Translations under genes and position numbers: made by a program
Shown here: positions 14,525-54,450 of the stretch, one piece after another
How positions within the stretch are numbered: position 1 is the first letter of the stretch
Layout: each line of letters opens with the position of its first letter
The notes under the pieces: model-generated
Told to the model about the DNA's origin: nothing
Seen by the model: the letters and a program-made list of their open reading frames with translations, nothing else
Databases searched by the model: none
Source: Patescibacteria group bacterium
Lineage (GTDB): Bacteria > Patescibacteriota > Patescibacteriia > Patescibacteriales > JBAZCA01
Assembly (NCBI GenBank): GCA_041671125.1
Contig: JBAZCA010000001.1
Location: 136,120-200,119 of the forward strand
Length of the DNA: 64,000 bases
Direction of reading: 5' to 3'

Positions 14525-14535
14525 ATAAATAAAAT

Positions 14536-14557
14536 CCGTCCCTTTTGAGGACGGTTT
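14536..14557 (-). terminator. Attenuator terminator 11 nt upstream of cysK ATG
   Basis: Minus strand reads CCGUCCU-CAAAA-GGGACGG followed by AUUUUAUUUAU, then ATG. Its 5' half AAACCGUCCUC can instead pair with GAGGAUGGUUU (14621-14631). Confidence 0.65.
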
Positions 14558-14600
14558 CTTTTTTACAGTCTGCTATTCATGGGATTTTTGACTTTCAGGC

Positions 14601-14699
14601 TTAGACTTTTGACTCGTGGGAAACCATCCTCAAAACCGGCTTGCTACCCGAGCCGCCGCACCCGCCTGAAAGAGACATTTTGAAGATGGATATGTTCAT
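14601..14699 (-). CDS. Candidate leader peptide, Ser/Gly/Cys-rich (32 aa)
   Basis: MNISIFKMSLSGGCGGSGSKPVLRMVSHESKV, verified codon by codon. The ATG lies 6 nt after the -10 box, so it looks leaderless. Confidence 0.55.
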   Translation of the reverse strand: MNISIFKMSLSGGCGGSGSKPVLRMVSHESKV

Positions 14700-14705
14700 A
14701 GTTAT

Positions 14706-14734
14706 ATGCTAAATAATTTTCGCCCGAGTGTCAA
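14706..14734 (-). promoter_or_regulatory. Sigma70-like promoter of the cysK leader
   Basis: Minus strand reads TTGACA (14729-14734), 17 nt spacer, TAGCAT (14706-14711), 6 nt, ATG. Confidence 0.6.
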
Positions 14735-14789
14735 TAGCGCCGAGCGTGTGAGCGAGGCGTCCCGCAGCCGTCAGGCGTGCGGGGCTGTC

Positions 14790-15410
14790 TTAAATAAGTG
14801 ATCCGAGTAAATCATCAACCGTATAACTCTTATCCATCTGCTCGTAATAATCAATCGTCGTATCCGCCAGTTTTTCGTAAAGCCCGGTCCGATAAGCTAA
14901 AAGCGCCGGATAGCATCTTTTTAGAGCCGCGACCTCTTTCTCGCCGGCCAAAGGCTTATACGCTTCACCCCAGATTATCGGCTTCGGGTTGTCAAAATAC
15001 TGTTTAATTTTTTTCTCAATTACTTCTTTCGGCGTATTAAAATAAACTACTTTGGTCAGTTTTTTCATTCTTAGGAGTAGTTCGCCGGACAGGTAAATAA
15101 CGCTCCCGGTCGTGTCAATAACAATATTTTCGCTTATTCCATTTTCCGCGGCATCCAGCGCTTCTTTTAGGTTTTTAGCTTCAAGTTCCAGATATTTCCC
15201 GCTGTTTTCCGGGCATCTCTCGTCATAAGGCTGTCCGAGCCAGCGGCTCATGTCTTTAATTCCCGAATATCCGAGTTCTTCCAGTTCCGGGCCGAGCGCT
15301 TTCTCAATCATGTCGTCAATGCCAAACCTTTTAAAGCCTTTTTCTTTTTTAAGCTTCTCCGACCAGTAAGATTTCCCTACTCCGGCCATGCCGATTAAAG
15401 AGATAAACAT
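14790..15410 (-). CDS. P-loop kinase, shikimate-kinase-like fold; function uncertain
   Basis: Walker A GMAGVGKS. DTTGSVIY aligns with the STGGGVI of shikimate kinases. It lies immediately downstream of thrC, and a separate aroK exists at 28534. Confidence 0.55.
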   Translation of the reverse strand: MFISLIGMAGVGKSYWSEKLKKEKGFKRFGIDDMIEKALGPELEELGYSGIKDMSRWLGQPYDERCPENSGKYLELEAKNLKEALDAAENGISENIVIDTTGSVIYLSGELLLRMKKLTKVVYFNTPKEVIEKKIKQYFDNPKPIIWGEAYKPLAGEKEVAALKRCYPALLAYRTGLYEKLADTTIDYYEQMDKSYTVDDLLGSLI

Positions 15411-15422
15411 AATTTTATGTAA

Positions 15423-16781
15423 TTACAAATTCCCAAGCGCTTTTTTCAACTCCTCATAATTATTTTTAATACTGATTTTCCGCTTCTCTTTCTGCTTTAG
15501 CTTTTTTATTTCTTCCGAATCATCAACGTAAATCCCGGTGTTTTCCTTAATCACGTCAGCGAACTTTAAAGGCGAGGCTGTGGAAAAAACAACTTTAGTA
15601 AGTCCGTTCTCGCCTTCCTTTTCCGCTCCGGCGAACGCCACGGCCGTGTGGGGATCAAGGAGATAATTATATTTTTCATAAACTTTTTTTATGGTTTCGG
15701 CCGTTTCCTTGTCATCCACTCTTTCCGCTTTTATCACTTTGCGGAATTCATCCGGGTTATCATGGAAAACTTTTTGGATGCGGATGAAGTTGCTCGGGTT
15801 GCCGATGTCCATGGCGTTAGAAAGGGTCGCCACCGTCGCCCGCGGCTTAAACTCTCCGGTTTCGTAATATTTTTTCGCCGCGTCATTGGCGTTGGTAACC
15901 GCTAAAAACCGGCTAAAAGGAAATCCCATTTCCCGGGCAAAAACTCCGGCGCAAAGGTTGCCGTAGTTGCCGCAAGGCACGACAAATTCCACCCCCTCTT
16001 GGTCTCCCCCTTTTAAAGGGGGAGATATTTTTTGTCCCGCCCGTTTCCTCCCTCTTTCTAAGGGGGAGGTTAGGAGGGGGTAGAGTTGCGAATAAACATA
16101 AGCGTAATAAACCATCTGCGGCAATAGCCGGCCGACGCTTATGGAATTAGCGGCCGTAAGGTTTAACGCGGCTAAATCCGGGTCATTAAACGCCTGCTTG
16201 GCGAACGCCTGGCAATCGTCAAAAACGCCTTCAACTTCAATAGTCGCAACATTCGGCTCCACCCTGGTCAACTGCTCTTCCTGCAGTTTGGAAACCATGC
16301 CCTTAGGATAAAGGATTACTACTTTCACGTTCGGAACCCCGCCAAGGCCGTGCGCCACGGCGCCGCCGGTATCACCGGAAGTGGCAACGAGAATCGTCGC
16401 GGTTTTTTTCTCTTTTTCAAGGATCCGGCTCATGAACCGCGCGAGAACCCGCGCCGCCACGTCTTTAAACGCGAGCGTCGGGCCATGAAACAATTCAAGA
16501 ACATAATAATCCCCGATCTTTATTAAAGGCAGGGGAAAATTTAAAGCCTCTTCCATCATCACCCGAAGTTCTCCCTCGCTAAAATCGTCGCCTACCCATT
16601 TTAAAAGCGTTTGCGTTGCGACCTCAGTCAAATCCTTTCCTTTTAAATTTTCCAGTTCTTCTTCGGAAAATTTCGGAAAAAATTCGGGAAAATAAAGCCC
16701 GCCGTCCGGCGCGAGGCTCTTTAACATGGCTTCTTTAAAATTAACGGCCGGTGATTTACCGTTTAAGCTAAAAAATTTCAT
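15423..16781 (-). CDS. thrC: Threonine synthase (long type) carrying an in-frame family D repeat insertion
   Basis: The N-terminus GGLYFPEFFP, HGPTLAFKD (PLP lysine) and SGDTGGA are ThrC motifs. The segment LLTSPLERGRKRAGQKISPPLKGGDQEG is encoded by the repeat at 15989-16084. Confidence 0.9.
   Translation of the reverse strand: MKFFSLNGKSPAVNFKEAMLKSLAPDGGLYFPEFFPKFSEEELENLKGKDLTEVATQTLLKWVGDDFSEGELRVMMEEALNFPLPLIKIGDYYVLELFHGPTLAFKDVAARVLARFMSRILEKEKKTATILVATSGDTGGAVAHGLGGVPNVKVVILYPKGMVSKLQEEQLTRVEPNVATIEVEGVFDDCQAFAKQAFNDPDLAALNLTAANSISVGRLLPQMVYYAYVYSQLYPLLTSPLERGRKRAGQKISPPLKGGDQEGVEFVVPCGNYGNLCAGVFAREMGFPFSRFLAVTNANDAAKKYYETGEFKPRATVATLSNAMDIGNPSNFIRIQKVFHDNPDEFRKVIKAERVDDKETAETIKKVYEKYNYLLDPHTAVAFAGAEKEGENGLTKVVFSTASPLKFADVIKENTGIYVDDSEEIKKLKQKEKRKISIKNNYEELKKALGNL
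15989..16084. repeat. Family D palindromic element inside the thrC coding sequence
   Basis: ccaccccctcttggtctcccccttttaaaggggga...tcctccctctttctaagggggaggttaggagggggtag. The reading frame is maintained. Confidence 0.8.
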
Positions 16782-16822
16782 TATTTTTAAGATGCGGTTT
16801 TAGACTGTAGAATAATCATTTT

Positions 16823-16923
16823 TGTCATCTCGACGACCGAAGGGAGGAGAGATCTAATTGCTATGAATGCTTTTTCACGGAGATTAGATTTCTCGCCCTC
16901 CTTGCGTCGGGCTCGAAATGACA
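16823..16923. repeat. Family C palindromic repeat
   Basis: tgtcatctcgacgaccgaagggaggagagatctaa...ttagatttctcgccctccttgcgtcgggctcgaaatgaca. Confidence 0.75.
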
Positions 16924-16974
16924 AAAGAGGGGTTTTTGTTGCGTTCTTCTATAGTCTAAATTTAGATAAAAAAA

Positions 16975-17391
16975 TTAACAGCTTCTTTCATCCTTCTTCA
17001 GCTTGTAATTAAAACTCTCAACAAGCGCTATCCAGCTCGCTTCTATAATATTCAATGACACGCCGATAGTCCCCCAGCGATCTTTGCCGTCGCTTGATTC
17101 AATAAAGACCCGGACTTTGGCCGCGGTCCCGTCTTTGGACGGCAGTACCCGGACTTTGTAATCAGTGAGCTTCATTTTTTTCAGCCGCGGATAGACTTTT
17201 TCAAGGGATTTCCTAAGCGCGTTGTTTAGAGCGTCAACCGGCCCGACGCCAGACGCCGTATTCCGCTCTTTATTAGCGCCAACTTTAATCCCGACTTCAG
17301 CTTCGGCCGCCGGCTCCCCCCAGTCCCTTTCTTTCTGGACTATTACCCGATAGTCCATAAGTTCAAAGAATTTTTTCTCTTTGTGAGGCAT
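16975..17391 (-). CDS. Stand-alone LeuA-type allosteric (LeuA_dimer-like) domain protein
   Basis: SGVGPVDALNNALRKSL...AAKVRVFIESSDGKDRWGTIGVSLNIIEASWIALVESF. It shares the GVGPxDA motif and following strands with the LeuA C-terminus (52332..) and the C-terminus of the 46074..47936 product. Confidence 0.65.
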   Translation of the reverse strand: MPHKEKKFFELMDYRVIVQKERDWGEPAAEAEVGIKVGANKERNTASGVGPVDALNNALRKSLEKVYPRLKKMKLTDYKVRVLPSKDGTAAKVRVFIESSDGKDRWGTIGVSLNIIEASWIALVESFNYKLKKDERSC

Positions 17392-17605
17392 ATTGTTTAG
17401 AGTTATTGAGACGGTGGCAAAACTAATTTTACAACCATCTCAATTATCCCCTTATAATATCAATCTAGCACATACTCCTAAAAATTCAATCCTCAGCTAC
17501 TTATAAATGATTTTTTCGGCATGCTTCGTCATAAAAACGGGATTCATGGAATGAAGCCTGATTTTTGGGAGAGGAGAAAAGACATTTTCTTCCGTCTTTC
17601 CTCCC

Positions 17606-17785
17606 CTAACGAAGCCCCAAATCTCTTTTGCATAGCTTACAAAACGGGGGCCTCATCTGCGGGATCAGGTCGTGGCAATCTTTAAAGATTACCACCTTAA
17701 CCTCTCTCCCGCAGCCTTTTTTCCTGCAAGTAAAAACAGCTGTTTCTCTCTCCCTTGCAGGTTGGAGAGATTTTTTTTGATCCAT
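17606..17785 (-). CDS. Small zinc-ribbon-like protein (59 aa)
   Basis: MDQKKSLQ...FTCRKKGCGREV...PPFCKLCKRD has CxxxC...CxxC. Preceded by CCGGAAAGGAGG and 6 nt, then ATG. Confidence 0.4.
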   Translation of the reverse strand: MDQKKSLQPARERETAVFTCRKKGCGREVKVVIFKDCHDLIPQMRPPFCKLCKRDLGLR

Positions 17786-17926: not shown

Positions 17927-18130
17927 TCACATTCCGCGCGGGATTGGTCCCGGTTGGGATACGATTTGATGACGTTCCTGCTCGAGGCAATACATCGAGC
18001 AGGCCATCTGTCCCAGTAAAGGGGCGAGGTCAAATATCTTAATTCCTCGCCCCTTCACCGGGAACAGTCCCCGGCATACTCTGCAGGGGCAGACAATAAT
18101 CCTGCCCCTGAAAAGTTCAAAACCCTTCAT
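17927..18130 (-). CDS. Small Cys-rich protein (67 aa)
   Basis: MKGFELFRGRIIVCPCRVCRG...ACSMYCLEQ. Preceded by CCAAGGAGGG and 4 nt, then ATG. A hairpin follows at 17885-17925. Confidence 0.4.
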   Translation of the reverse strand: MKGFELFRGRIIVCPCRVCRGLFPVKGRGIKIFDLAPLLGQMACSMYCLEQERHQIVSQPGPIPRGM

Positions 18131-18485: not shown

Positions 18486-18517
18486 GATAAAAAAATACCG
18501 CCCCAATTGCGGGCGGC
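18486..18517 (-). terminator. Attenuator terminator of the Thr/Ile/Met leader
   Basis: Minus strand reads CCGCCC-GCAAUUG-GGGCGG followed by UAUUUUUUUAU. Its 5' half lies within a 12 nt sequence that is perfectly complementary to 18575-18586. Confidence 0.65.
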
Positions 18518-18596
18518 TGGCTGATTATTCTTTGACTTTCTTACTTCTAACTTCTTACTTCTAACTTATTTTCGCCGCCCGCAATTAAAACCCCGG

Positions 18597-18656
18597 TCAT
18601 AATAATTCCGGTCATCATCATAATGGTCTTAATTGTGGTGGCGTTTATTCTCGTCA
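18597..18656 (-). CDS. Candidate leader peptide, Thr/Ile/Met-rich (19 aa)
   Basis: MTRINATTIKTIMMMTGII, verified codon by codon. Similar in style to E. coli ThrL ([21 protein letters not shown]). The ATG lies 6-7 nt after the -10 box. Confidence 0.6.
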
Positions 18657-18662
18657 TGTTTA

Positions 18663-18692
18663 TATTTAATCAAACACCAACGAAACTGTCAA
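18663..18692 (-). promoter_or_regulatory. Sigma70-like promoter of the Thr/Ile/Met leader
   Basis: Minus strand reads TTGACA (18687-18692), 18 nt spacer, TAAATA (18663-18668), 6 nt, ATG. Alternatively a 17 nt spacer, TTAAAT and 7 nt. Confidence 0.55.
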
Positions 18693-18799: not shown

Positions 18800-19060
18800 T
18801 TACCGGCGGTCAGGACACAAGGGTGCCCTTTCTTTCGTCGCCGGAGGGGGGGCGGTGAGGGGCGAGTTGCCCCTCAAAGTAGCCAACTCTTGTGGAGACC
18901 CTAACCAGGCCTCCATGCTAACACGAAAATCCGCTCCCACCGGCGGTTCCCCAACCGCCGAAATAATCCCGCGGTGCCTAAGGCATTCCGGTCTCTGGCA
19001 CCCGGGCCCGCATGTCAACGTCTCCTCCCCGGGGGTGGGCGGAGTCTTTTGTTCGGACAT
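18800..19060 (-). other. GC-rich locus: either an 86-aa ORF or a structured RNA (unresolved)
   Basis: GGCGGAAAGGAGG, 6 nt, then ATG, opening an ORF MSEQKTPPTPGEETLTCGPGCQRPECL... The region also contains many GC helices: ggcctggtt/aaccaggcc, gaggggc/gcccctc, cggcggtt/aaccgccg and ggtgcc/ggcacc. Confidence 0.35.
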
Positions 19061-19635: not shown

Positions 19636-19884
19636 CTACTTTTTAGCTTTTTCCTCCTTAATAATTCCGAGCTCTAAATGGCGAAGCCGGTACATCTCAT
19701 TTACCGGATTCGCTTTCTGCTCCCGGGCAGCCTTCGCCCGGTCGCAATCCCTCTCCGAGTGCGCCCTCTTGAAGCGACGCACATACTCTTCTTTTTCGGC
19801 CTTACTCAGCATATTACCGAATCGGCCGATTTCCAGCCCGCAACGCCGACAACAGACTGGAACAAAAAAACTTATTGAAACCAT
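19636..19884 (-). CDS. Small basic Cys-containing protein (82 aa)
   Basis: MVSISFFVPVCCRRCGLEIGRFGNMLSKAEKEEY... Preceded by CCAGAAGGAGGA and 4 nt, then ATG. Confidence 0.4.
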   Translation of the reverse strand: MVSISFFVPVCCRRCGLEIGRFGNMLSKAEKEEYVRRFKRAHSERDCDRAKAAREQKANPVNEMYRLRHLELGIIKEEKAKK

Positions 19885-22135: not shown

Positions 22136-22164
22136 TTGACACCAAATCGGAAAAAATGTATTAT
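22136..22164 (+). promoter_or_regulatory. Sigma70-like promoter of the aro operon leader
   Basis: TTGACA (22136-22141), 17 nt spacer, TATTAT (22159-22164). Confidence 0.55.
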
Positions 22165-22195: not shown

Positions 22196-22279
22196 ATGAA
22201 ATTCGGCCAAATCTGGTTTAGCTACTTTTATTTTTACTTTACCCTTAAAACAAGGCCGGTTTTTTGCATTAATCAATAG
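22196..22279 (+). CDS. Candidate leader peptide, Trp/Phe/Tyr-rich (27 aa)
   Basis: MKFGQIWFSYFYFYFTLKTRPVFCINQ, verified codon by codon. 10 of 27 residues are aromatic, covering all three aromatic amino acids. Confidence 0.6.
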   Translation: MKFGQIWFSYFYFYFTLKTRPVFCINQ

Positions 22280-22299: not shown

Positions 22300-22328
22300 G
22301 AACCCGGCCCAAAAGAGCCGGTTTTTTT
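22300..22328 (+). terminator. Attenuator terminator 6 nt upstream of the first aro gene
   Basis: CCGGC (22304-22308), 8 nt, GCCGG (22317-22321), then T7. CCGGCC can alternatively pair with GGCCGG at 22254-22259 inside the leader ORF. Confidence 0.5.
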
Positions 22329-22334
22329 AATTTT

Positions 22335-23126
22335 ATGGCTTCAAAAAAAGAACTCTTATCAAAAATTATCAATCCCGTTTCCGGACGGACGGTTATTGTT
22401 CCCATGGATCACGGCGTTACCGACGGACCGATTTCGGGCCTTGAAAAAATGGATGAAATCATCCGCAAAGTAAAAGAAGGCGGCGCCGACGCTATTATCA
22501 TCCACAAAGGCATTTTTAAATTATGCCGGGAAGCCATCGGCGATCTTCCGGTTCTAATCCATATCTCGGCTTCAACCGGCATGGGCGTTTCTTTAAAAAA
22601 AGTTTTAGTCGCTACAGCCCGCGAAGTTAAAAACCTCGGCGCGGCCGGAGTTTCTGTCCATTTGAATATCGGGAACGAATACGAACCGGAAATGCTCCGC
22701 GATCTCGGCATTATTTCCCGCGAATGCGAAGAGGAAGGATTGCCGCTTTTAGCCATGATGTATCCGCGCGGCATTATTGACGGCCGGATAGTCCATTACA
22801 ACGACCCCGCCCGGGTGGCGCACGCCGCCCGCCTCGCGGCCGAACTCGGAGCCGACATAGTTAAAGTCCCATACACCGGCGACGCGAAAAGTTTCGGCGA
22901 AGTGGTCAAAAGCTGTCCCGTACCGGTCGTTATCGCCGGCGGAGCCAAAGGCTCGGAAGAAGCCATGCTTTCTTCCATCCGGGATTGCGTCCGGGCCGGA
23001 GCGACCGGAGTTTCGGTCGGCCGGAACGTCTTCCAGTCCGAAGACGTCCCGGGTATGGTAAAAAAAGTCCGGGACACTGTCTATAACGCGACCCTTAATT
23101 TGTCATCTATACAGACTGTCCGATAA
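22335..23126 (+). CDS. 2-amino-3,7-dideoxy-D-threo-hept-6-ulosonate (ADH) synthase, class I aldolase family (archaeal AroA')
   Basis: DhnA/FbaB-type aldolase with IVPMDHG and the Schiff-base region ADIVKVPY. The adjacent DHQ synthase II supports the specific call. Confidence 0.8.
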   Translation: MASKKELLSKIINPVSGRTVIVPMDHGVTDGPISGLEKMDEIIRKVKEGGADAIIIHKGIFKLCREAIGDLPVLIHISASTGMGVSLKKVLVATAREVKNLGAAGVSVHLNIGNEYEPEMLRDLGIISRECEEEGLPLLAMMYPRGIIDGRIVHYNDPARVAHAARLAAELGADIVKVPYTGDAKSFGEVVKSCPVPVVIAGGAKGSEEAMLSSIRDCVRAGATGVSVGRNVFQSEDVPGMVKKVRDTVYNATLNLSSIQTVR

Positions 23127-23127
23127 T

Positions 23128-23335
23128 TGTCATTCCGACCCCGCCTTTTGCGGGGGAGGAATCCCTTAAAGGTGAAAGTGGCTAGTTTAAGGGATTTCTC
23201 CCCGCCGATTCGGCGGGTCGAAATGACAAAAAAAGGAGTTGTCGGGTAGCTTGGAGAGATATAATTGAGTTGAACATATTATAAAAAAAATCTCATACGT
23301 AGCGATTAGATCTCTCGCTACGCTCGAGATGACAA
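23128..23335. repeat. Family C palindromic repeats (one full copy plus a half copy)
   Basis: tgtcattccgaccccgccttttgcggggg...ccccgccgattcggcgggtcgaaatgaca, then ...gattagatctctcgctacgctcgagatgacaaaag. The half copy supplies the ATG at 23329. Confidence 0.75.
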
Positions 23336-24351
23336 AAGATATGCAAAAAATATTCTGGTACCAGCCCCCGGTCTGGGATAAAAAATTAGTTACCGCGGCC
23401 ATTGAATCGGGCTTTTCCGCGATCTACGTCCGGCCAGAAGACATCTTAAGGACAAAAGAACTTTCCCTGGCCAAAGTCGTTTCAACCGCCGCGCCGGCTG
23501 ATTTCATCATCGGCGAAAACGTTGACGAAGTGGAAATCAAAAACAAAGAGGCTGAAGAACTGGTCGTCCGGCACCAGGGAAGAATTCCGGTTATTATAAG
23601 GAACCTTGACTGGACAATAATCCCTTTGGAAAATCTTATTTCAAAAACAACAAACTTAATCCAGCATGTCCGCGGTTATGACGAGGCTAAGCTGGCCTTT
23701 GAAACTTTGGAAAGCGGCTGTGACGGGATATTACTGGAAAGCGGCGATTTGAATGAAATAAAAAAAACAGCCACCCTGATTAAAGACGCCCAAAACGAAA
23801 AACTGAAACTCGCCCACGCTGAAATATCTTCAGTAGAACAGCTCGGTCTAGGCGACCGGGTGGTTGTTGATACTTCCTCCATATTATTTCCCGGCCAGGG
23901 CATGCTCGTCGGAGACTCTTCCAAAAGTATGTTTTTAGTATATAATGAAAACGTGGAGACTCCTTACTGCGATCCGCGTCCCTTCCGGGTTAACGCCGGC
24001 GGCGCCCACGCCTACATCCGCCTGCCCGGCGACAAAACTAAATATCTCGGAGAACTAAAAAGCGGCATGAAAGCTTTGGCCGTTGATCCGGCCGGCAACA
24101 CCGAAGAAGCTATCATCGGCCGGATAAAAATAGAAAAGCGGCCAATGCTTATTGTTCGGGCCAAAGTCGGTGAGCGAGACATGAGCCTGGTCATGCAAAA
24201 CGCCGAAACCATCCGGCTTACCGGAACTGACGGACAGCCGATTTCAGTTACAAAATTAAAACCCGGCGACAAGGTGCTGGCTTTCCTGCAGGAAGAAGGG
24301 GTTGGGAGGCATTTCGGCCAGAAAATAAAAGAAACCATAACCGAAAAATAA
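23329..24351 (+). CDS. 3-dehydroquinate synthase II (archaeal type, AroB')
   Basis: About 340 aa. The N-terminus FWYQPPVWDKKLVTAAIESGFSAIYV is typical of the DHQS-II family as I recall it. The true start may be the ATG at 23341. Confidence 0.8.
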   Translation: MTKDMQKIFWYQPPVWDKKLVTAAIESGFSAIYVRPEDILRTKELSLAKVVSTAAPADFIIGENVDEVEIKNKEAEELVVRHQGRIPVIIRNLDWTIIPLENLISKTTNLIQHVRGYDEAKLAFETLESGCDGILLESGDLNEIKKTATLIKDAQNEKLKLAHAEISSVEQLGLGDRVVVDTSSILFPGQGMLVGDSSKSMFLVYNENVETPYCDPRPFRVNAGGAHAYIRLPGDKTKYLGELKSGMKALAVDPAGNTEEAIIGRIKIEKRPMLIVRAKVGERDMSLVMQNAETIRLTGTDGQPISVTKLKPGDKVLAFLQEEGVGRHFGQKIKETITEK

Positions 24352-24446
24352 ATAAATCCATACCAATAATATATCGGACCGTTTACTTGCTAAATAGCGG
24401 CGAAAGTGATACTTTAGGGAAATAATAGCTTTTAATTCCGTAATTT

Positions 24447-25835: not shown

Positions 25836-25837
25836 CC

Positions 25838-25915
25838 TGTCATCCTGAGCGAAGCGAAGGATCTCGTAAATAGAGTCTTACCACGGGATTCTTCGGCCTT
25901 CGGCCTCAGAATGAC
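25838..25915. repeat. Family C palindromic repeat
   Basis: tgtcatcctgagcgaagcgaaggatctcg...gattcttcggccttcggcctcagaatgac. Very similar to 53989-54066. Confidence 0.8.
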
Positions 25916-25926
25916 CTTTTTAATTT

Positions 25927-27015: not shown

Positions 27016-27120
27016 ATCTTCAATTATCAATGATCAATTTTCAATCAATTTTCAATTAAGCAATTTTAAAATTTAGAAATTAATTCATTTAAAATTGTTT
27101 AAAAATTTAAAATTTTCCGA
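27016..27120. repeat. Family E AT-rich hairpin repeat
   Basis: caattatcaatgatcaattttcaatcaattttcaattaagcaattttaaaatttagaaattaattcatttaaaattgtttaaaaatttaaaatt. Confidence 0.65.
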
Positions 27121-27131
27121 TTTACATTTCA

Positions 27132-28520: not shown

Positions 28521-28533
28521 GAAAAGAGAATAT

Positions 28534-40304: not shown

Positions 40305-40307
40305 TAA

Positions 40308-41357: not shown

Positions 41358-41441
41358 AAATATTCGCGCGTAACATATAACATGGAACATATTCTTTCGC
41401 TCATGTTACGTGTTATGTGTTACGTGTTATGTTTTTTTAAT

Positions 41442-43181: not shown

Positions 43182-43251
43182 AACAAAATTAATTTTTTTC
43201 AATGTTGCGGCAGAATCTCCCGAAGGGGATTCTGCCGGTATAACACAATTG

Positions 43252-44871: not shown

Positions 44872-44879
44872 AAATAATC

Positions 44880-44985
44880 GTCATTCTGAGCTGAGTGAAA
44901 CGAAGCGAAGAATCTCGTGTTAATTCCGAAAACGACGAGATCCTTCATTCCGTCCCGATGACTCGGGACTTCATTCAGGATGACA
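44880..44985. repeat. Family C palindromic repeat
   Basis: gtcattctgagctgagtgaaacgaagcgaagaatctcg...gagatccttcattccgtcccgatgactcgggacttcattcaggatgaca. Confidence 0.75.
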
Positions 44986-44996
44986 TACTAAAAATT

Positions 44997-45896
44997 TTAT
45001 ACATACGTCAGCCACTTACTGTATTTCTCGTTCTCGCCCGCCACAATTCGCATAAACTCCTCGTTCAGCTTCCCGGTAATCGCTCCGATTTTTCCGTTGG
45101 CAATTAACTGGCCGTTAATTGATCCAATCGGCGTTACCTCGGCCGCCGTGCCGGTGAAAAAGCATTCATCCGCGGCCAAAGCCTCCTCTAATAAAACTAT
45201 CCTTTCTTCTGTTTCATATCCTAAATCGCGCGCCAGTTCAATTATGGATTGTCTGGTAATCCCCGCTAAAATATTTCCCAAAAGAGGCGTAACCAGTTTG
45301 CCTTCTTTTGCCAGGAAAAAATTTTCTCCCGGCCCTTCGGCAATGTTCCCGTTAAAATCCAAAAGAAGCGCCTCGTCATAACCTTCGCTGTTAACTTGCA
45401 AAAAGGACAAAATGGAATTTACGTAATGGCCGCAGATTTTCGCGTCGGTAACTGATGACTTTGGATGGATTCGAATATAATCCGCCACTTTCACTTTTAT
45501 CGGGTCAGCGCTTAGATATTTTCCCCAGGGCCAGGCGGCGATTATAGCTTCCACCGGACAGCCTAACGGACTGATCCTTAACTCGCCGTAGCCGTAATAA
45601 ATAAGCGGCCGGATGTAGCCCTGTTTCAGTTCGTTTATCCTAACGGTCTCAATCACCGCGTTTTTAAATTCTTCTTTGGTCCAGGGCATTTTCATTTTTA
45701 TGGCTCCGGCCGAATAATAAAGCCGGTCAATATGCTCTCCCAGCCGGAAGATGACCGGCCCTTTCTCGGTTTCATACGCGCGGATGCCTTCAAAAACCCC
45801 GGAGCCGTAATGGATCGAATGGCTAAGGACATGGACTTTAACCTCTTCCCATAATTTCATCTCCCCGTTTTGCCAGATGTATTTAGTGGATTGCAT
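44997..45896 (-). CDS. ilvE: Branched-chain amino acid aminotransferase
   Basis: HYGSGVFEGIRAY, PLGCPVEAIIAAWPWG and FFTGTAAEVTPI are fold-type IV motifs. Confidence 0.9.
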   Translation of the reverse strand: MQSTKYIWQNGEMKLWEEVKVHVLSHSIHYGSGVFEGIRAYETEKGPVIFRLGEHIDRLYYSAGAIKMKMPWTKEEFKNAVIETVRINELKQGYIRPLIYYGYGELRISPLGCPVEAIIAAWPWGKYLSADPIKVKVADYIRIHPKSSVTDAKICGHYVNSILSFLQVNSEGYDEALLLDFNGNIAEGPGENFFLAKEGKLVTPLLGNILAGITRQSIIELARDLGYETEERIVLLEEALAADECFFTGTAAEVTPIGSINGQLIANGKIGAITGKLNEEFMRIVAGENEKYSKWLTYV

Positions 45897-46050
45897 AGAT
45901 AATTTTCAATTTCAAATTTTCAATTTCTAAACAATTTTCAATGAATTAATTTCTAAATTTTATTCCGAATCACCGGATTAATTAAAAATTTAAAAATTGG
46001 AAATTGTTTGAAAATTAGAAATTGAAAATTGAAAATTTTACTTGTTACTG
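45897..46050. repeat. Family E AT-rich long hairpin
   Basis: Arms ttttcaatttcaaattttcaatttctaaacaattttcaatgaattaatttctaaatttt and aaaaatttaaaaattggaaattgtttgaaaattagaaattgaaaattgaaaat. Confidence 0.7.
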
Positions 46051-46073
46051 AGTAGTAAACTTTTAATAACGAT

Positions 46074-47936
46074 TCACTTTTTTTTGTCCTCTTTTTTATT
46101 ACATAAAATATTATACGCGCGTTCAAACGCCTCTATGCTCGCCACAATTATATCCGGCGAGGTGGCGGTTGAAATAACTTTGTTTTCAGCCTCGTCTTTT
46201 AAGCCCATAGTCACTTCAACCGACGCGTCAGTTCCTTTGCGGTCAATTTTTACGTCAAAATCAATGAGCCAGTAATTCGGCAGTTTTTCGTTCTTTATGA
46301 CTTCGCGCACGGCTTTCATTATCGCGTCCACCGGACCGACGCCGAAAGATTTTCCCCGGCAAACCCGCTTTCCCGCTACCCGGACGCAAACCTCGGCTTC
46401 GGCCCGGGCGGTTTTTGACGTTGATACGTTGAAATCTTCCACGCTGATGATTTTTTTCGCTCCCGGATCGGTTTTTAAGATGGACTCAATAATATGCTGT
46501 AAGTCCGATTTCCTCATCTTATCTTCTTTTTTAAAAAAATTTTCCACTTCAGCCTGGATGGCGACGAGATATTTTTTATCAAGGCTCACCCCGAATTTAC
46601 CCTTAACGGTTTTTTCCGTCTTCTTTAAAACCGGACATTTGGTAAAAAGCACTTCCACTTTATCTTTTTCCACGGTTGACTGGATATTGTAAAGTTTCAT
46701 TTTAAGGTAATGGTCTACCTCGGAGAGGTTAGGTTCAATTGACGGCGGCGAAGGCAGAATTTTTAACATAGTCACCGGATCCTTAAGCCCGTTGCCGGTC
46801 AAAACGCAAACAACGGTTTCTTCTTTTTTTATTACGCCTTTTAAAGCGAGCATTTTTACGGCCGCGAGCGGCAGGGCGGCTGACGGCTCAACAAAAATTG
46901 ATTCTTCGCTGGCGAGCTCTTTTTCCGCTTTAAGAATTTCCTCGTCCGAGACTTCTAAAGCCATGCCTTTGGATTCTTTTATATCCCTCAAAACTTTCAG
47001 GCCGTCCACCGGGTAACCGACCGCCACGGCCGAAGCGATTGTCCGGGGTTTGGGGATTGGTTTTATTTTCGTGGTTTTTTCGCGGTAAGCCAGGGCAATA
47101 GTGTTGGACCCTTCGGGCTGGACGCCGATTACTTTCGGCAGTTTGTTAATAAAACCAAGCTCGTAAAACTCGCGCATGCCTTTATAGATGGCCGCAATGT
47201 TGGTTCCGCAACCGACCGGCACGATTAAGTAGTCTGGCGCGTTCCAGCCGAGCTGTTCCACTATTTCATAGCCTTGGGATTTCTGACCTTCACCGCGGAA
47301 TACATAGTCTCCGGCCAGATAAAATTTATATTTTTTCGCGATTTCTTCGGCCAGTTTCGCGCACTCCGAATAAGTCGCCCGAACCTGGATTACCCGGGCG
47401 CCGTAAGCGAGGGTCTGCGCCAGCTTTCCGATCGGCGTGCCTTCGGGCACGACGATATAAGCCGGAATTCCGGCTTGAGAGGCGTAGGCCGAAACCGAAG
47501 CGGCCATATTGCCGGTTGAAGCGACGACGACCGCCTTAGCGCCCATTTCCAGGGCTTTGGTTATTTCCACCATAGTCCCCCGGTCCTTAAAGCCGCCAGT
47601 CGGATTAGAAGTCTCATCCTTAAAATACAAATTTTCCAGTCCGAGCCGCTTGGCGATTTTCCGCGATTTCCGAAGCGGCGTCCCGCCTTCGTTTAACGTT
47701 ACCAATTTTTTAAGATCAAGAATCGGGTAAAAATTAAGATACTTGGTCGCGGAAATCGGCGCGTACTTTAAATTAAACTGGTTTAACCGGCATTTGATAA
47801 AATCCCAGTCATATTCGGCTTCCAAAGCGTCGCCGCATTTTAAACAGGACGAAGATGTTTCTTTTTCATCCCAAACCGTCCCGCATTTAACGCATCGCAA
47901 CCGGTAAAACTTAACTGTGCCTTTTGAAGAAACCAT
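46074..47936 (-). CDS. Threonine-synthase-like PLP enzyme fused to a C-terminal LeuA-type allosteric domain
   Basis: N-terminal zinc ribbon (CVKCG...CLKCG). FKDETSNPTGGFKDRG (PLP lysine) and TGNGLKD are ThrC-family motifs. A linker of about 100 aa follows. The C-terminus GVGPVDAIMKAVREV...DASVEVTM...SPDIIVASIEAFERAYN parallels the LeuA C-terminus. Confidence 0.7.
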   Translation of the reverse strand: MVSSKGTVKFYRLRCVKCGTVWDEKETSSSCLKCGDALEAEYDWDFIKCRLNQFNLKYAPISATKYLNFYPILDLKKLVTLNEGGTPLRKSRKIAKRLGLENLYFKDETSNPTGGFKDRGTMVEITKALEMGAKAVVVASTGNMAASVSAYASQAGIPAYIVVPEGTPIGKLAQTLAYGARVIQVRATYSECAKLAEEIAKKYKFYLAGDYVFRGEGQKSQGYEIVEQLGWNAPDYLIVPVGCGTNIAAIYKGMREFYELGFINKLPKVIGVQPEGSNTIALAYREKTTKIKPIPKPRTIASAVAVGYPVDGLKVLRDIKESKGMALEVSDEEILKAEKELASEESIFVEPSAALPLAAVKMLALKGVIKKEETVVCVLTGNGLKDPVTMLKILPSPPSIEPNLSEVDHYLKMKLYNIQSTVEKDKVEVLFTKCPVLKKTEKTVKGKFGVSLDKKYLVAIQAEVENFFKKEDKMRKSDLQHIIESILKTDPGAKKIISVEDFNVSTSKTARAEAEVCVRVAGKRVCRGKSFGVGPVDAIMKAVREVIKNEKLPNYWLIDFDVKIDRKGTDASVEVTMGLKDEAENKVISTATSPDIIVASIEAFERAYNILCNKKEDKKK

Positions 47937-48090: not shown

Positions 48091-48152
48091 TAAAAAACCA
48101 CCTATGTTGGTGGCAGTTTTCTTTTCCTTTTAGTCCAATTATGAAACTGCCA
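48091..48152 (-). terminator. ilv attenuator: terminator and antiterminator segments
   Basis: Minus strand: GUGGCAGUUU (48142-48151) is perfectly complementary to AAACUGCCAC (48112-48121). The terminator is CCACC-AACAUA-GGUGG followed by UUUUUU (48094-48115). Confidence 0.65.
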
Positions 48153-48218
48153 CTAGGTGGGAATAATCAAGCTTACTACTACTACAATATCCAGGTTTTT
48201 TGGCAGTTTTTTTATCAT
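48153..48218 (-). CDS. Candidate leader peptide, Ile/Val/Leu-rich (21 aa)
   Basis: MIKKLPKNLDIVVVVSLIIPT, verified codon by codon. 11 of 21 residues are branched-chain. The ATG lies 6 nt after the -10 box. Confidence 0.7.
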   Translation of the reverse strand: MIKKLPKNLDIVVVVSLIIPT

Positions 48219-48224: not shown

Positions 48225-48253
48225 ATTCTAAAGCTTTTCCTTATGCGTGTCAA
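48225..48253 (-). promoter_or_regulatory. Sigma70-like promoter of the ilv leader
   Basis: Minus strand reads TTGACA (48248-48253), 17 nt spacer, TAGAAT (48225-48230), 6 nt, ATG. Confidence 0.6.
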
Positions 48254-52331: not shown

Positions 52332-53942
52332 TCACAAGCTCGCCAGATACCAGCTTAAGCAATTGGCGAACGCCTGGGCCGAGGCCTGGTTAGTATCAAT
52401 ATGGACCGCCCGGCCGGAAAAAGTATGGTTTTCGTCATTATTAATTCTTATCCGGCCGTAAACGTCGGCCAAAGCGTCTGATCCGGATGAAACCGCTACC
52501 GGCCGCCAGTCATTAAGGCTGATCTTCACTTTTTTTAACTCGGGATAAAATTCTTCCGCCGCCCGGATTACCGAGTGCATGATCGCGTCATACGGCCCGA
52601 CGCCGACTGAGGCGCTAATGCTTTCTTTGCCGTCAATTTCAACGACCACGGTCGCGGTCGGGAGACTGCCTTCTCCGCCGATAGCCTGACAGCGCTTTAC
52701 TTTAATCGGGAAAGGGATAATATCAATAGTCTCGTGCACAATCGCCGCCAGCTCCCGGTCGGATAAAGGCTTGCCGGCCATGGCCTCGGAAATTTTTACG
52801 GACTCGCTATAAATTTTTTGCAGTTCTTCTTTCCCGAGCGCGTATCCAAGCTCTTCCAGCCTGATGCGAAGCCCTTCCCGGCCGGAGGATTGGTTGATCA
52901 CGGTCGTAACTTTGGCATGACCGTAAGTTTCCGGGTGCCAGCTGTAATAAGCGCTCTCCATTCCCTGCTCCCGAGCTCGGGCTTCTATGGCCTGATGGGT
53001 GCCGGAAGAGCAGATTGAATTTTGCGCGCCGACGACGACCCAATGCCGCGGCACGTTCATGCCTAAGGCGTTCGCTATAAAGCTAACGATTTTTACGCAA
53101 AGCTCCGGTTTAAAATCAATCTTAAAATCACCGAACATGTCCTGCCGGGTATGCATGTTCATAATTATTGCCTCAAGTTTAGTCATGCCCGAGCGTTCGC
53201 CTAAACCGAAAAATGTTCCTTCAATAATGTCCGCGCCGTTTAACACGGCTTGCAGGGCGTTATGGGTTCCATGATCAGAGTCATTATGGCAGTGGATGGA
53301 AATAAGGGCGTTTTTCCGGTTAGGGACGTTTTCTTCAATTAGAGCGATTAAATCCCCGAATTCATTACCAACCCGAAGTCCGGTCGTATCCGGAATGTTG
53401 ACAACATCCGCTCCGGCGGAAATCACCGCGCCGACCATCCGGTACAAAAATTCCCGGCTGGTCCGAGCCGCGTCCTCCGGAGAATATTCTATACTTTTAA
53501 AACCAAGGCTCTTCGCGTAAGCCACCATAGCCCCTGCCTGGTCAATGGTCCAGTTTTGCTTTCCTTCCACAGTATCGCCGTATTTATCGGCGGCGAACAT
53601 GGCTTTGACAAAATCAGGCGAGGCCGGAATATAGATGTGGCATAAATCGCACCCCGCCTCCTTAATCGCGTCAATGTCTTCTTTTTTCGCCCGGGCCAGT
53701 CCGCCTAAAAGCGGCCTTTTTCCTTTGGCATTATTATTCACGAAATCCACAATCCGCCCGCAGTTTTCAAGCTGGACTTTAGAACTCCCGGGAAAACCGA
53801 TCTCAATCCGGTCAATGCCGCCTTCTAAAAGATAGCGGACATAAGTGAGCTGATCCCCGGGACTCATAGCCCCGCCCGAAACCTGGGCTGATTCCCGTAA
53901 GCAGACGTCGTTTAGCTGAATTTGTTTTTTGGCTTCGGTCAT
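52332..53942 (-). CDS. leuA: 2-isopropylmalate synthase family enzyme (a citramalate synthase cannot be excluded)
   Basis: LRESAQ, IEIGFPGSS and HCHNDSDHG are DRE-TIM HMGL-like motifs. C-terminal LeuA allosteric domain (GVGPYDAIMHSV...). Preceded by a Leu-rich leader. Confidence 0.85.
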   Translation of the reverse strand: MTEAKKQIQLNDVCLRESAQVSGGAMSPGDQLTYVRYLLEGGIDRIEIGFPGSSKVQLENCGRIVDFVNNNAKGKRPLLGGLARAKKEDIDAIKEAGCDLCHIYIPASPDFVKAMFAADKYGDTVEGKQNWTIDQAGAMVAYAKSLGFKSIEYSPEDAARTSREFLYRMVGAVISAGADVVNIPDTTGLRVGNEFGDLIALIEENVPNRKNALISIHCHNDSDHGTHNALQAVLNGADIIEGTFFGLGERSGMTKLEAIIMNMHTRQDMFGDFKIDFKPELCVKIVSFIANALGMNVPRHWVVVGAQNSICSSGTHQAIEARAREQGMESAYYSWHPETYGHAKVTTVINQSSGREGLRIRLEELGYALGKEELQKIYSESVKISEAMAGKPLSDRELAAIVHETIDIIPFPIKVKRCQAIGGEGSLPTATVVVEIDGKESISASVGVGPYDAIMHSVIRAAEEFYPELKKVKISLNDWRPVAVSSGSDALADVYGRIRINNDENHTFSGRAVHIDTNQASAQAFANCLSWYLASL

Positions 53943-53954
53943 AATTTAGATATC

Positions 53955-54100
53955 AAAATGACAATGCAAAAATTTAAAATATTGCATCGTCATCCTGAGC
54001 GTAGCGAAGGATCCCGTGAATAGAGCTATTACCACGAGATTCTTCGGCCTTCGGCCTCAGAATGACGAATTATTTTTTCATTTTACATTGTCATTTTGAT
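53955..54100. repeat. Family C repeat nested in an AT-rich outer palindrome
   Basis: Outer arms caaaatgacaatg / cattgtcattttg. Inner gtcatcctgagcgtagcgaaggatcccg...cggcctcagaatgac (53989-54066). Confidence 0.75.
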
Positions 54101-54123
54101 TTTTTGATTTTTACATTTTACAT

Positions 54124-54154
54124 TAATATAAAACGCCACCCTTTTTTAGGTGGC
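54124..54154 (-). terminator. leu attenuator terminator
   Basis: Minus strand reads GCCACC-UAAAAAA-GGGUGGC followed by GUUUUAUAUU. GCCACC can alternatively pair with GGGUGGC at 54191-54199 inside the leader ORF. Confidence 0.65.
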
Positions 54155-54179
54155 TTTCTTTCAATCTTCATCTAGTAAA

Positions 54180-54269
54180 CTACGTAAAAACCGCCACCCG
54201 TCTTAAAGGCAACAAGAGCAACAAGTTTAAAAACGGTTTAATATTTAATTTTTGATTTATTTTAAACAT
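54180..54269 (-). CDS. Candidate leader peptide, Leu-rich (29 aa)
   Basis: MFKINQKLNIKPFLNLLLLLPLRRVAVFT, verified codon by codon. 8 Leu, 5 of them consecutive (TTG TTG CTC TTG TTG). Confidence 0.65.
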   Translation of the reverse strand: MFKINQKLNIKPFLNLLLLLPLRRVAVFT

Positions 54270-54283
54270 ATAAAACCGCGCGG

Positions 54284-54412
54284 CTAAGCGACTTTCAAGA
54301 TTGATTTTATTTTTCTAACGTCCTCTTCCAGCGTCTTTACCATACCCAAAACAATCTCATTTTTCTCATCAAACTTATTTAATATTTCAAGTTTTTTATT
54401 ATCCTTGTCCAT
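54284..54412 (-). CDS. Candidate 42-aa helical small ORF preceding the Leu leader
   Basis: MDKDNKKLEILNKFDEKNEIVLGMVKTLEEDVRKIKSILKVA. The ATG lies 9 nt after a consensus -10 box. Its stop is 14 nt before the Leu-leader ATG. Confidence 0.4.
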   Translation of the reverse strand: MDKDNKKLEILNKFDEKNEIVLGMVKTLEEDVRKIKSILKVA

Positions 54413-54421
54413 ATTAACTCT

Positions 54422-54450
54422 ATTATATAAGCGGAGTCAGAAGTTGTCAA
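54422..54450 (-). promoter_or_regulatory. Consensus sigma70 promoter
   Basis: Minus strand reads TTGACA (54445-54450), 17 nt spacer, TATAAT (54422-54427). Confidence 0.65.

Follow-up and report, generated by a model that had tools for sequence, protein, structure and literature searches.

Probable leader-peptide attenuators upstream of amino-acid biosynthetic operons in a member of the Patescibacteria

Introduction

Candidate phyla radiation (CPR) bacteria, or Patescibacteria, are usually portrayed as auxotrophic symbionts with minimal regulation. The stretch of DNA analyzed here, 64,000 nucleotides (nt) from a Patescibacteria group bacterium (GenBank assembly GCA_041671125.1, contig JBAZCA010000001.1, positions 136,120 to 200,119; hereafter the window), has a G+C content of 45% across its 64 kb, and about 45 kb of it holds pathways for serine, cysteine, threonine, the aromatic amino acids, tryptophan and the branched-chain amino acids. 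The units concerned are serB-serC-serA, cysK, a thrC unit, pheA-tyrA, an aro operon, trpEGDCFBA, an ilv operon, leuCD-leuB and leuA. An original prediction, made from the sequence, proposed that each biosynthetic operon has a leader peptide spelling out its whole amino-acid family, mostly on leaderless mRNAs, and named five such loci. The analysis described below makes it likely, to a degree that we regard as good confidence, that these five loci are ribosome-mediated (leader-peptide) transcription attenuators.

Leader open reading frames and their codon content

All five predicted short open reading frames (sORFs), upstream of cysK, of the thr/cimA-type unit, of the aro and ilv operons and of leuA, exist, and each is accompanied by a terminator and a competing arm (Table 1). 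When the ATG-started sORFs of 12-50 codons on both strands of the window (n = 445) were ranked by amino-acid family, each leader came first or second for its own family, ranks that are slightly flattering because window sizes were picked after the peptides had been seen. The only other top scorers were two antisense ORFs, one of which is the reverse strand of the thr-type leader. All five leaders are short ORFs upstream of a biosynthetic operon whose pathway their codons match, as had been anticipated.

The claim that the codons cover a whole family is solid for Phe/Tyr, Ile/Val/Leu and Leu, and uneven for Trp and Cys. The aro leader contains an aromatic run of 8 of 10 residues with Trp as a single codon, which is lost in the relative L086 and is dispensable, and the cys leaders have one or two Cys codons inside a conserved Gly/Ser run. 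The thr-type leader encodes six Thr, six Ile and five Met residues, the start codon included.

Together with one T-box-like element, the five leaders serve six of the approximately nine biosynthetic transcription units in the window, and the proposal that each operon has a leader does not hold; in the ser, pheA-tyrA and leuCD-leuB units, no leader was detected. The 5' untranslated region (UTR) and start region of leuCD (48316-48410, + strand) carries 7.4 copies of the heptamer repeats AGTTATG / AGATATG, without a leader peptide, and these repeats fold into a hairpin of -29 kcal/mol that buries the start codon. Covariance-model searches with the Rfam leader families (Leu, Thr, His, Trp leaders and similar, from enterobacteria and Gram-positive bacteria) gave no match at the five loci, either at the gathering score or at E <= 0.5.

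Terminators and competing pairings

An intrinsic terminator lies between the sORF and the first structural gene at all five loci of the window, and an antiterminator that shares the 5' arm of the terminator can be formed at each. In a pairing test on 22 leaders from the window and its relatives, in which the terminator 5' arm was matched with the sORF region and the best duplex was compared with shuffled sequences, 21 of the 22 gave a duplex between -13 and -23.5 kcal/mol, with z from -3 to -7, the sole failure being a mis-picked terminator in L085; the duplexes of the window range from -14 to -22 kcal/mol. When the sORF was masked through its stop codon, the terminator was the minimum-energy fold in all cases. 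The antiterminator arm overlaps the stop codon in the ilv leader and lies 5-20 nt upstream of it in the Leu leader, in which a hairpin joining the Leu codons to the antiterminator arm corresponds to the classical 1:2 segment.

An unsupervised scan for sORFs that end near a terminator, have at least 8 in 10 residues drawn from their three commonest amino acids and possess an antiterminator, which together with promoter-anchored scans replaced a noisy, looser scan for enriched sORFs, picked up three of the window's leaders (aro, ilv and thr-type) along with the majority of their counterparts in relatives. Besides a few hits that are likely false positives, it added a Phe-rich leader in L092. The cys and Leu leaders of the window were missed because the terminator finder needs a run of five T.

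Promoters and the predicted start of the leader transcripts

The window contains three matches to the pattern TTGACA-N17-T(A/T)NNNT-N6-ATG, one each at the cys, thr-type and ilv leaders, against an expectation of 0.00 from 100 dinucleotide shuffles, and none of the three is preceded by a Shine-Dalgarno (SD) sequence. A 6-nt gap puts the usual +1 on the A of the ATG, and the mRNA should therefore begin with AUG; from this promoter spacing, we infer that the cys, thr-type and ilv leader mRNAs are leaderless. The same 6-nt geometry is found at leaders, orthologous and non-orthologous, in L001, L002, L005, L085, L086, L088 and L089. Spacings of 8-17 nt occur in some relatives (9 nt at the cys leader of L085, 14 nt at that of L086, and 17 and 10 nt at the Leu leaders of L090 and L091, respectively). 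The aro leader of the window clade has an AU-rich 5' UTR of 29-33 nt, and the aro leaders of L088 and L002 have the 6-nt geometry.

The original prediction of mostly leaderless transcripts thus stands, as a matter of geometry, for three of the leaders and falls for the aro leader, with its 31-nt UTR, and for the Leu leader, which lies behind the upstream sORF1; for the aro leader, a leadered transcript had already been implied. The proposed -10 spacings TAGAAT+6 and TAGCAT+6 were recovered, the thr-type promoter proved to be TTAAAT at 6 nt and not at 7 nt, and the 9-nt spacing between TATAAT and sORF1 was confirmed, a distance that fits a near-leaderless start. sORF1 itself is coiled-coil-like and matched no significant Pfam family. 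At other genes of the window, no leaderless geometry was seen; it appears at leader sORFs only.

Table 1. Positions of the leader elements and of other features in the window (ranks among 445 sORFs, slightly flattering because window sizes were picked after the peptides were seen).
Feature	Position	Strand	Description
cysK-leader promoter	14706..14734	-	TTGACA-17-TAGCAT; 6 nt from -10 end to ATG; same geometry in L001
cysK leader sORF	14699..14601	-	32 codons, core SLSGGCGGSGS, peptide MNISIFKMSLSGGCGGSGSKPVLRMVSHESKV; rank 1/445 for S/G/C
cysK antiterminator 5' arm	14619..14633	-	TTGAGGATGGTTTCC, within sORF; dG -21.4 kcal/mol, z = -5.3 vs shuffles
cysK terminator	14527..14557	-	CCGTCC-loop-GGACGG + T-run; ends 2 nt before cysK ATG (14524)
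thr/cimA-type leader promoter	18664..18692	-	TTGACA-17-TTAAAT; 6 nt to ATG; same geometry in L001, L085, L086
thr/cimA-type leader sORF	18657..18547	-	36 codons, peptide MTRINATTIKTIMMMTGIIMTGVLIAGGENKLEVRS; rank 1/445 for T/I/M
thr-type antiterminator 5' arm	18574..18586	-	AATTGCGGGCGGC; dG -22.2 kcal/mol, z = -3.4
thr-type terminator	18489..18517	-	GCCGCCC-loop-GGGCGGT + T7
aro-leader promoter	22136..22164	+	TTGACA-17-TATTAT; then 31-nt AU-rich 5' UTR to ATG
aro leader sORF	22196..22279	+	27 codons, core WFSYFYFYF, peptide MKFGQIWFSYFYFYFTLKTRPVFCINQ
aro antiterminator 5' arm	22253..22265	+	AGGCCGGTTTTTT; dG -14.2 kcal/mol, z = -3.8
aro terminator	22304..22328	+	CCGGC-loop-GCCGG + T7; 6 nt before ADH synthase ATG (22335)
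ilv-leader promoter	48225..48253	-	TTGACA-17-TAGAAT; 6 nt to ATG
ilv leader sORF	48218..48153	-	21 codons, core LDIVVVVSLII, peptide MIKKLPKNLDIVVVVSLIIPT
ilv antiterminator 5' arm	48143..48154	-	AGTGGCAGTTTC, begins at stop codon; dG -16.3 kcal/mol, z = -4.7
ilv terminator	48092..48119	-	GCCACC-loop-GGTGGT + T-run
leu-unit promoter	54422..54450	-	TTGACA-17-TATAAT; 9 nt before sORF1 ATG
sORF1	54412..54284	-	42 codons/aa, coiled-coil-like; ends 14 nt before Leu leader
Leu leader sORF	54269..54180	-	29 codons, 8 Leu, run LLLLL, peptide MFKINQKLNIKPFLNLLLLLPLRRVAVFT; rank 1/445
Leu segments 1 and 2	54185..54215	-	Leu-codon segment TTGTTGCC pairs with GGTGGCGG, then U-run; putative pause or anti-antiterminator hairpin
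Leu antiterminator 5' arm (segment 2)	54185..54200	-	dG -16.4 kcal/mol, z = -4.2
Leu terminator	54128..54154	-	GCCACC-loop-GGGTGGC + T-run; upstream of leuA
trp leader	32022..32330	+	promoter TTGACA-17-TATAAA, Stem-I-like hairpin 32083..32118, T-box sequence AAGGTGGCACCGCGGGA 32251..32271, terminator 32273..32330
aro operon	22335..32011	+	ADH synthase, dehydroquinate synthase II, ask, asd, aroA, aroK-aroE fusion, aroD, aroC
trpEGDCFBA	32623..39564	+	downstream of trp T-box-like leader
ilv operon	39707..47936	-	ThrC-family/LeuA_dimer fusion (46074..47936), ilvE, ilvD, ilvB, ilvC, ridA
thr-type unit genes	14790..17418	-	truncated cimA (ORF 16975..17391, homology to 17418), thrC 15423..16781, homoserine-kinase-like gene 14790..15410
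leuA	52332..53942	-	downstream of Leu leader terminator
SD-led small ORFs	17785..17606, 18130..17927, 19060..18800, 19884..19636, 54837..54505, 55392..55216, 13285..13172	-	AGGAGG sites
AT-rich palindromic blocks	3998-4048, 7845-7893, 21932-22068, 27010-27128, 45896-46043, 55988-56041, 56653-56693, 57021-57077		

Conservation of the leaders in related loci

All five sORFs recur in relatives, and both the codon run and the alternative pairings are conserved there: the arms differ, and the architecture is kept. The enriched core persists across relatives of 56-85% identity, with variable N- and C-termini. The aro leader is present in L001, L085, L086, L087, L088, L002, L093 and L095; the ADH synthases of L085, L086, L087, L088 and L002 are 78%, 76%, 69%, 67% and 63% identical to that of the window, respectively. 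Its core reads WFSYFYFYF in L001, FFSFFVFYYFFNF in L087, WFFSFYFF in both L088 and L002, and IYYFFYFFF in L093, a locus of GCA_014729725.1 whose ADH synthase is named Candidatus Moranbacteria by a source. The metagenome locus L095, which encodes a protein identical to one named Candidatus Roizmanbacteria, has two tandem aro leaders, FYFYF and FYFYFY, at 3579-3640 and 3859-3960. At least five sets of arms, with no resemblance between these groups (the window, L087, L088/L002, L093 and L095), are found in an unchanged layout. Among the core codons of the window, L001, L085 and L086, three of the four varying codons are synonymous (TAT/TAC, TTT/TTC), and the fourth is the TGG>TTG change in L086 that removes the Trp codon.

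The cys leader is kept in L001, L085 (SGGCGGSGSC) and L086 (SICGGSGSGGSGC) with the same Gly/Ser/Cys run and synonymous codon changes, and its terminator shows a compensatory change in the arms, CCGTCC/GGACGG in the window versus CCATCC/GGATGG in L085. Orthologues of the thr-type leader occur in L001, in L085 (TITMKMTGIIMTG) and in L086, in which the Ile/Thr leader MIITAKNIITTIIIPQ... lies directly 5' of a full-length citramalate synthase gene; the thr-type leader is the orthologue of the cimA leader of relatives. The terminators of this family read GCCGCCC/GGGCGGT in the window, GCCGTCC/GGACGGC in L085 and CGCCCCGCA/TGCGGGGCG in L086, each variant with its own matching antiterminator arm. Orthologues of the ilv leader were found in L089 and L005, and those of the Leu leader in L089, L090 and L091.

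Further leaders were noticed in these loci. In L005, the ilv leader is preceded, about 400 nt upstream, by a second leader that is Val-rich (MLNLARKIVLIVVEVVVMVM...) and has a terminator of its own, the two attenuators lying at 3541-3725 and 4109-4260. In L092 (13305-13400), a Phe-rich leader, YFFFFFFW, is followed by small Cys-rich ORFs, and in L090 (3634-3800), an aromatic leader precedes a classical DAHP synthase gene, in a genome that uses SD sequences.

Proposed mechanism and alternative explanations

In the mechanism that we propose, a strong sigma-70-type promoter would produce a short transcript opening with an ORF of 21-36 codons rich in codons for the end product: Phe/Tyr (and Trp) for the chorismate pathway, Ile/Val/Leu for ilv, Leu for leuA, Thr/Ile/Met for cimA-thrC-thrB, and, for cysK, Cys embedded in a Gly/Ser run. 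Under a shortage of the cognate charged tRNAs, the first ribosome would stall within the codon run. The RNA segment at the end of the ORF, or immediately ahead of it, would then stay free to pair with the terminator 5' arm, and the resulting antiterminator would allow RNA polymerase to enter the operon. When the tRNAs are charged, the ribosome would cross or cover this segment, the terminator hairpin and its U-run would form, and transcription would stop. At the cys, thr-type and ilv leaders, a 70S ribosome could load directly on the AUG-first mRNA as it emerges, which would suit this genome because its ordinary genes are without an SD sequence. The aro leader would be initiated through the usual AU-rich, SD-less 5' UTR of the genome, and the Leu leader would probably be reached by re-initiation or coupling after the upstream ORF.

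Several observations weigh against this reading or narrow it. The organism is an uncultured metagenome-assembled genome (MAG), and the transcription starts, the translation of the sORFs, their response to starvation and the codons that do the sensing are predictions from sequence. Between the antiterminator arm and the stop codon, 14-36 nt intervene in the aro, cys and thr-type leaders, with the arm upstream, such that a ribosome parked at the stop would miss the arm and the decision would therefore have to be made through kinetic coupling or a putative upstream 1:2 pairing. The cys leader of the window has one Cys codon, and sensing of Gly or Ser would have no obvious logic for cysK. The thr-type leader is about 1.1 kb away from the next biosynthetic gene, the truncated cimA, and its present target is uncertain because this gap contains repeats resembling miniature inverted-repeat transposable elements (MITEs), a possible second promoter and a pair of small ORFs with SD sites. 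As for the Leu leader, it is not leaderless and starts 14 nt past the stop codon of sORF1; in L089, its ATG is 1 nt from the stop of a 132-aa ORF in the position of sORF1, and this closeness suggests coupling or re-initiation. Finally, the closest relatives (84-87% protein identity) provide little independent evidence, and the more distant support comes from a handful of loci per leader.

The attenuators could be real and the leader sORFs nevertheless not lie on leaderless mRNAs, with transcripts starting elsewhere and SD-less initiation from AU-rich 5' UTRs. The layout of the aro and Leu leaders and the longer spacings in some relatives point in this direction, as do transcription starts that are predicted ones; however, the exact promoter-to-ATG pattern, with three matches against none expected and its repetition at leaders of seven other loci, argues for an AUG-first start, and no alternative promoter of comparable quality was seen upstream. 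We give this explanation a small but appreciable chance. That the sORFs are incidental and untranslated, and that attenuation depends on RNA only or on a bound factor (as in a riboswitch, a T-box-like or a protein-dependent element), is brought to mind by the putatively tRNA-sensing, T-box-type leader of the trp operon in the same window and by the ilvB leader of Streptomyces, in which mutations of candidate regulatory codons were reported to be without regulatory effect (PMC1262725). It is nevertheless extremely unlikely here: the codon enrichment matches the pathway at five of five loci, amino-acid identity is stable while the codons and flanking RNA arms change, the ATG stands exactly at the predicted +1, the Rfam searches recognized none of the five loci, and beyond the two hairpins there is no conserved structure resembling a ligand pocket.

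The start codon of the first gene follows the end of the terminator by 6 nt at the aro leader and by 2 nt at the cys leader, so that the hairpin could also occlude initiation, and in mycobacteria, ribosomes stalled on poly-Cys sORFs unmask a downstream ribosome-binding site (bioRxiv 10.1101/834739). Translated sORFs could accordingly act on downstream translation or on Rho-dependent termination in place of an intrinsic terminator; this is very unlikely, since every leader has a canonical GC-rich hairpin followed by 4-8 T, the signature of intrinsic termination, and the ilv, leu and thr-type hairpins are 150-1100 nt from the next start codon. Almost no credence can be given to chance ORFs beside ordinary terminators or to small hydrophobic peptides that act in their own right. 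Hydrophobicity is a trait of several of the peptides and AT-rich intergenic DNA produces many short ORFs, but the leaders each rank first or second among the 445, always lie upstream of the cognate operon, and conserve their enriched core while their termini vary. Attenuation by a translated leader peptide is thus the reading we retain.

Relation to known attenuation systems

The enterobacterial leaders trpL, leuL, thrL, ilvL/ivbL, pheL and hisL have the same anatomy as the loci described here, namely an sORF with cognate codons, mutually exclusive antiterminator and terminator hairpins, and a U-run; in the Leu leader, the likeness extends to the 1:2 hairpin over the Leu codons. Multi-amino-acid leaders are also classical, with Thr and Ile in thrL and Ile, Val and Leu in ilvL. 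To our knowledge, Cys within a Gly/Ser run and the Thr/Ile/Met set are not among the codon sets of classical leaders. Unlike the enterobacterial leaders, which belong to Proteobacteria, those of the present patescibacterial lineage share no sequence homology with them at E <= 0.5 in Rfam, have no SD sequence before the leader, and in three cases start at the predicted +1.

Leaderless leader peptides have been described elsewhere. In Deinococcus deserti, in which about 60% of mRNAs are leaderless, 14 leader peptides have been predicted at a 5'-terminal AUG from mapped starts, upstream of amino-acid biosynthesis or tRNA synthetase genes, and attenuation has been proposed (PMC4007540); leaderless transcripts are thus widespread there, whereas in the present window the geometry is confined to leader sORFs and the starts are predicted ones. 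The ilvB leader of Corynebacterium diphtheriae is Ile/Val-rich and lies on a leaderless transcript before the ilv genes (PMC5784534). C. glutamicum aroR, according to a summary of Neshat 2014 in PMC11802643, is a Phe-Tyr-Phe leader before aroF. Corynebacterium and the present lineage thus both place an aromatic Phe/Tyr leader at the entry of the common aromatic pathway and trp under separate control. In Corynebacterium the entry enzyme is DAHP synthase and trp is preceded by trpL, whereas here the leader precedes an ADH synthase/dehydroquinate synthase II route with ask and asd in the operon, the aromatic run is much longer, and trp has a T-box-like element. Polycysteine leaderless sORFs of mycobacteria have been validated by experiment as Cys sensors (bioRxiv 10.1101/834739), and a prediction of actinobacterial cys leader peptides dates from 2005, with no terminators found there (PMC1262725). 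These resemble the cys leader in being leaderless or near-leaderless, in containing Cys codons and in lying upstream of cysteine genes; the mycobacterial sORFs have runs of Cys, in contrast to the one or two Cys codons within a Gly/Ser run, followed by a clear intrinsic terminator and antiterminator, found here.

Full-text literature searches on leader peptides, attenuation or T-boxes in CPR, Patescibacteria or Parcubacteria brought up nothing relevant. The proposed novelty of the repertoire therefore has to be divided: within the literature searched, the lineage appears new for leader-peptide attenuation, while the principle is not, as the leaderless leaders of Deinococcus, Corynebacterium and Mycobacterium illustrate. 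Because the mechanism is a textbook one, the value of the finding lies in distribution and annotation. If true, it would widen the range of leader-peptide attenuation to a very large and uncultured part of the bacterial tree and present a CPR member with unusually broad, regulated amino-acid biosynthesis that appears to tune at least six units to tRNA charging. The elements are compact (about 150-200 nt each) and suitable for heterologous testing, and they offer a clean case for transcription-translation coupling without SD sequences at ordinary genes, to which an mRNA beginning with AUG is the apparent answer.

Shine-Dalgarno usage and SD-led small ORFs

The window also bears on the claim that SD-independent or leaderless initiation is the norm. 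At 51 gene starts, the mean energy of the duplex with the anti-SD sequence is -1.3 kcal/mol, weaker than the -2.5 kcal/mol of random sites, and in positions -16 to -1 the A+T content is about 75-80% and that of G about 10%; 74% of the genes have T at -1. The SD-less part of the claim is therefore borne out for core genes, whereas the leaderless part is not: core genes are SD-less but not leaderless. Furthermore, strong AGGAGG motifs at 5-8 nt are found before small intergenic ORFs on the - strand, mostly Cys-rich and 37-110 aa long, four of which are conserved as proteins in relatives, three of these retaining an SD-like site there. The SD-less start is the rule for core genes, with SD recognition probably retained because conserved small Cys-rich ORFs keep their AGGAGG sites. 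For comparison, about half of Parcubacteria are reported to have no detected anti-SD motif (PMC9297842); the window itself contains no rRNA.

SD-led small ORFs also occur in L001, L085, L086, L089 and L092, and several are zinc-ribbon-like, although Pfam searches with the SD-led small ORFs gave no significant family. In the window, L001, L085, L086 and L092, several lie directly between a leader or T-box terminator and the regulated gene. The ORF at 50446 was dropped as a candidate SD-led gene, its apparent SD motif belonging to a 42-nt repeat.

The trp leader

Upstream of trpE, a T-box-type element is present, as the original prediction had it, at a score that keeps it T-box-like: RF00230 matches 32136..32289 (+ strand) with 48.7 bits (E = 1.5e-9 on 801 nt and 1.2e-7 on the whole window), below the gathering score of 93 bits. 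Like RF00230 T-boxes, the element has a conserved T-box sequence (AAGGUGGCACCGCGGGA) in an antiterminator that competes with a long terminator, together with a Stem II and IIA/B-like regions, and its UGGC bulge is compatible with a G73 discriminator base; unlike them, it has a Stem I shrunk to a short hairpin. It precedes trpE in the window, L001 and L085, and related copies in L020 and L092 are not beside trp genes; an alignment fold of the five copies has 19 pairs with compensatory changes. An invariant CUGGGUC/AUGGGUC adjoins the short hairpin and contains a UGG that could be a Trp specifier codon; this UGG is also present in the L020 and L092 copies away from trp genes. The sub-threshold trp leader may be regarded as a candidate tRNA sensor.

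In Bacillus subtilis, anti-TRAP is a small zinc protein under the control of both a T-box and a leader peptide, and it offers a model for regulatory mini-proteins. By analogy, leaderless leader peptides and T-boxes with a short Stem I might form a shared, ribosome-read regulon of amino-acid-prototrophic CPR lineages that would gate both the biosynthetic operons and the SD-led Cys-rich mini-proteins, the latter as trans-acting starvation regulators. The loci that bear on this idea are those of the present clade and those linked by protein name to Moranbacteria and Roizmanbacteria, and we regard it as a doubtful conjecture.

Gene content and lineage

The lineage is CPR/Patescibacteria. Among the genomes of the species-representative collection, the nearest, 'MAG: Patescibacteria group bacterium SO_2017_GW1_227', is syntenic and has an ADH synthase of 84% identity. 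A Bacteroidetes origin, at first suggested by the SD-less starts, was rejected on the grounds that the promoters are of the canonical TTGACA/TATAAT type and that the nearest genomes bear a Patescibacteria group label. A metagenome scan with LeuCD yielded 80 loci, among which those of 55-64% identity (L006-L020, L046) contain only leuCD-leuB, without ilv, leuA or aro genes, and are uninformative for leader conservation for this reason; 5' of leuCD, these loci have a promoter and hairpin in another, short arrangement, and SD sequences are in use there.

The aromatic route opens with an archaeal-type ADH synthase and dehydroquinate synthase II (22335-27015, + strand), and ask and asd (aspartate kinase and aspartate-semialdehyde dehydrogenase), the suppliers of its substrate, lie inside the leader-controlled aro operon. 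Homologous aro operons are present in loci linked by protein name to Moranbacteria, Pacebacteria and Roizmanbacteria, and a Jacksonbacteria-linked contig (L096) is too short to display ask and asd.

The 138-aa ORF upstream of thrC (16975-17418, - strand) represents only the C-terminal LeuA_dimer (allosteric) domain of citramalate synthase and shares 62-64% identity with residues ~379-521 of the full-length CimA proteins of L085 and L086. Neither the window nor L001 has the catalytic domain, and homology extends 27 nt 5' of the ATG of the remnant ORF. The first gene of the ilv operon (46074-47936, - strand), in the expected place of ilvA, encodes a ThrC-family pyridoxal phosphate-dependent enzyme (NF006050, 313.6 bits, cutoff 303) with an N-terminal Cys cluster and a C-terminal LeuA allosteric domain, an architecture shared with L005 and L089. 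A DUF559 (Vsr-like endonuclease) domain and LeuB are found in one ORF (50446-52056, + strand); LeuB is stand-alone in relatives and probably has its own start at 50869.

Repeats and other elements

A GC-rich palindromic repeat of 42 nt, TTCCTCCCCCTTACnAAGGGGGAGGCTAGGAGGGGGT, occurs in five copies (1750-1791, 16042-16083, 49377-49418, 50363-50446), two of which are in frame within thrC (aa 234-247) and leuCD (aa 333-347), are absent from the orthologues of the closest relative, and resemble Rickettsia palindromic elements. An intergenic element of about 200 nt with the hairpin GCCACTTTTTCTAAAAAAGTGGC is present in four copies of 83-96% identity (11516-11724, 13410-13616, 29839-30041 and 40108-40315), three of them between genes inside operons (serC|serA, aroKE|aroD and ridA|ilvC); the copy next to aroD makes a later ATG the probable start of this long ORF, which opens with TTG. 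REP-like hairpins of about 36 nt, GTCATCCTGAGCG...GAAGGATCT, are intergenic at 12766, 25839, 28421, 44880, 52107, 53989, 55655 and 55665, and a 95-nt inverted MITE pair lies at 19315-19409 / 32372-32466, one copy of which separates the trp T-box terminator from trpE. Units of AAATTGAAAATT / AATTTTTAATTTT make up AT-rich palindromic blocks, which stand mostly just 5' of start codons without SD sequences (among them those of rplU, pheA, aroA, ilvE and ndk) and could be translation enhancers or protein-binding sites.

At 20134-20215 (- strand), a perfect promoter, TTGACA-18-TATAAT, precedes a strong terminator, GCCGTCTC...GGGGACGG with T6, by about 25 nt, with no ATG between them; the predicted transcript of about 55 nt, a possible small RNA, is conserved in L001 (about 8000-8090, - strand). 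A LOOT RNA (RF03000) at 62870-62997 (- strand), with 79.5 bits above the gathering score of 46.4, adjoins a gene for a ComEC-like metallo-beta-lactamase, part of which is duplicated (57625-58185 / 63063-63623).

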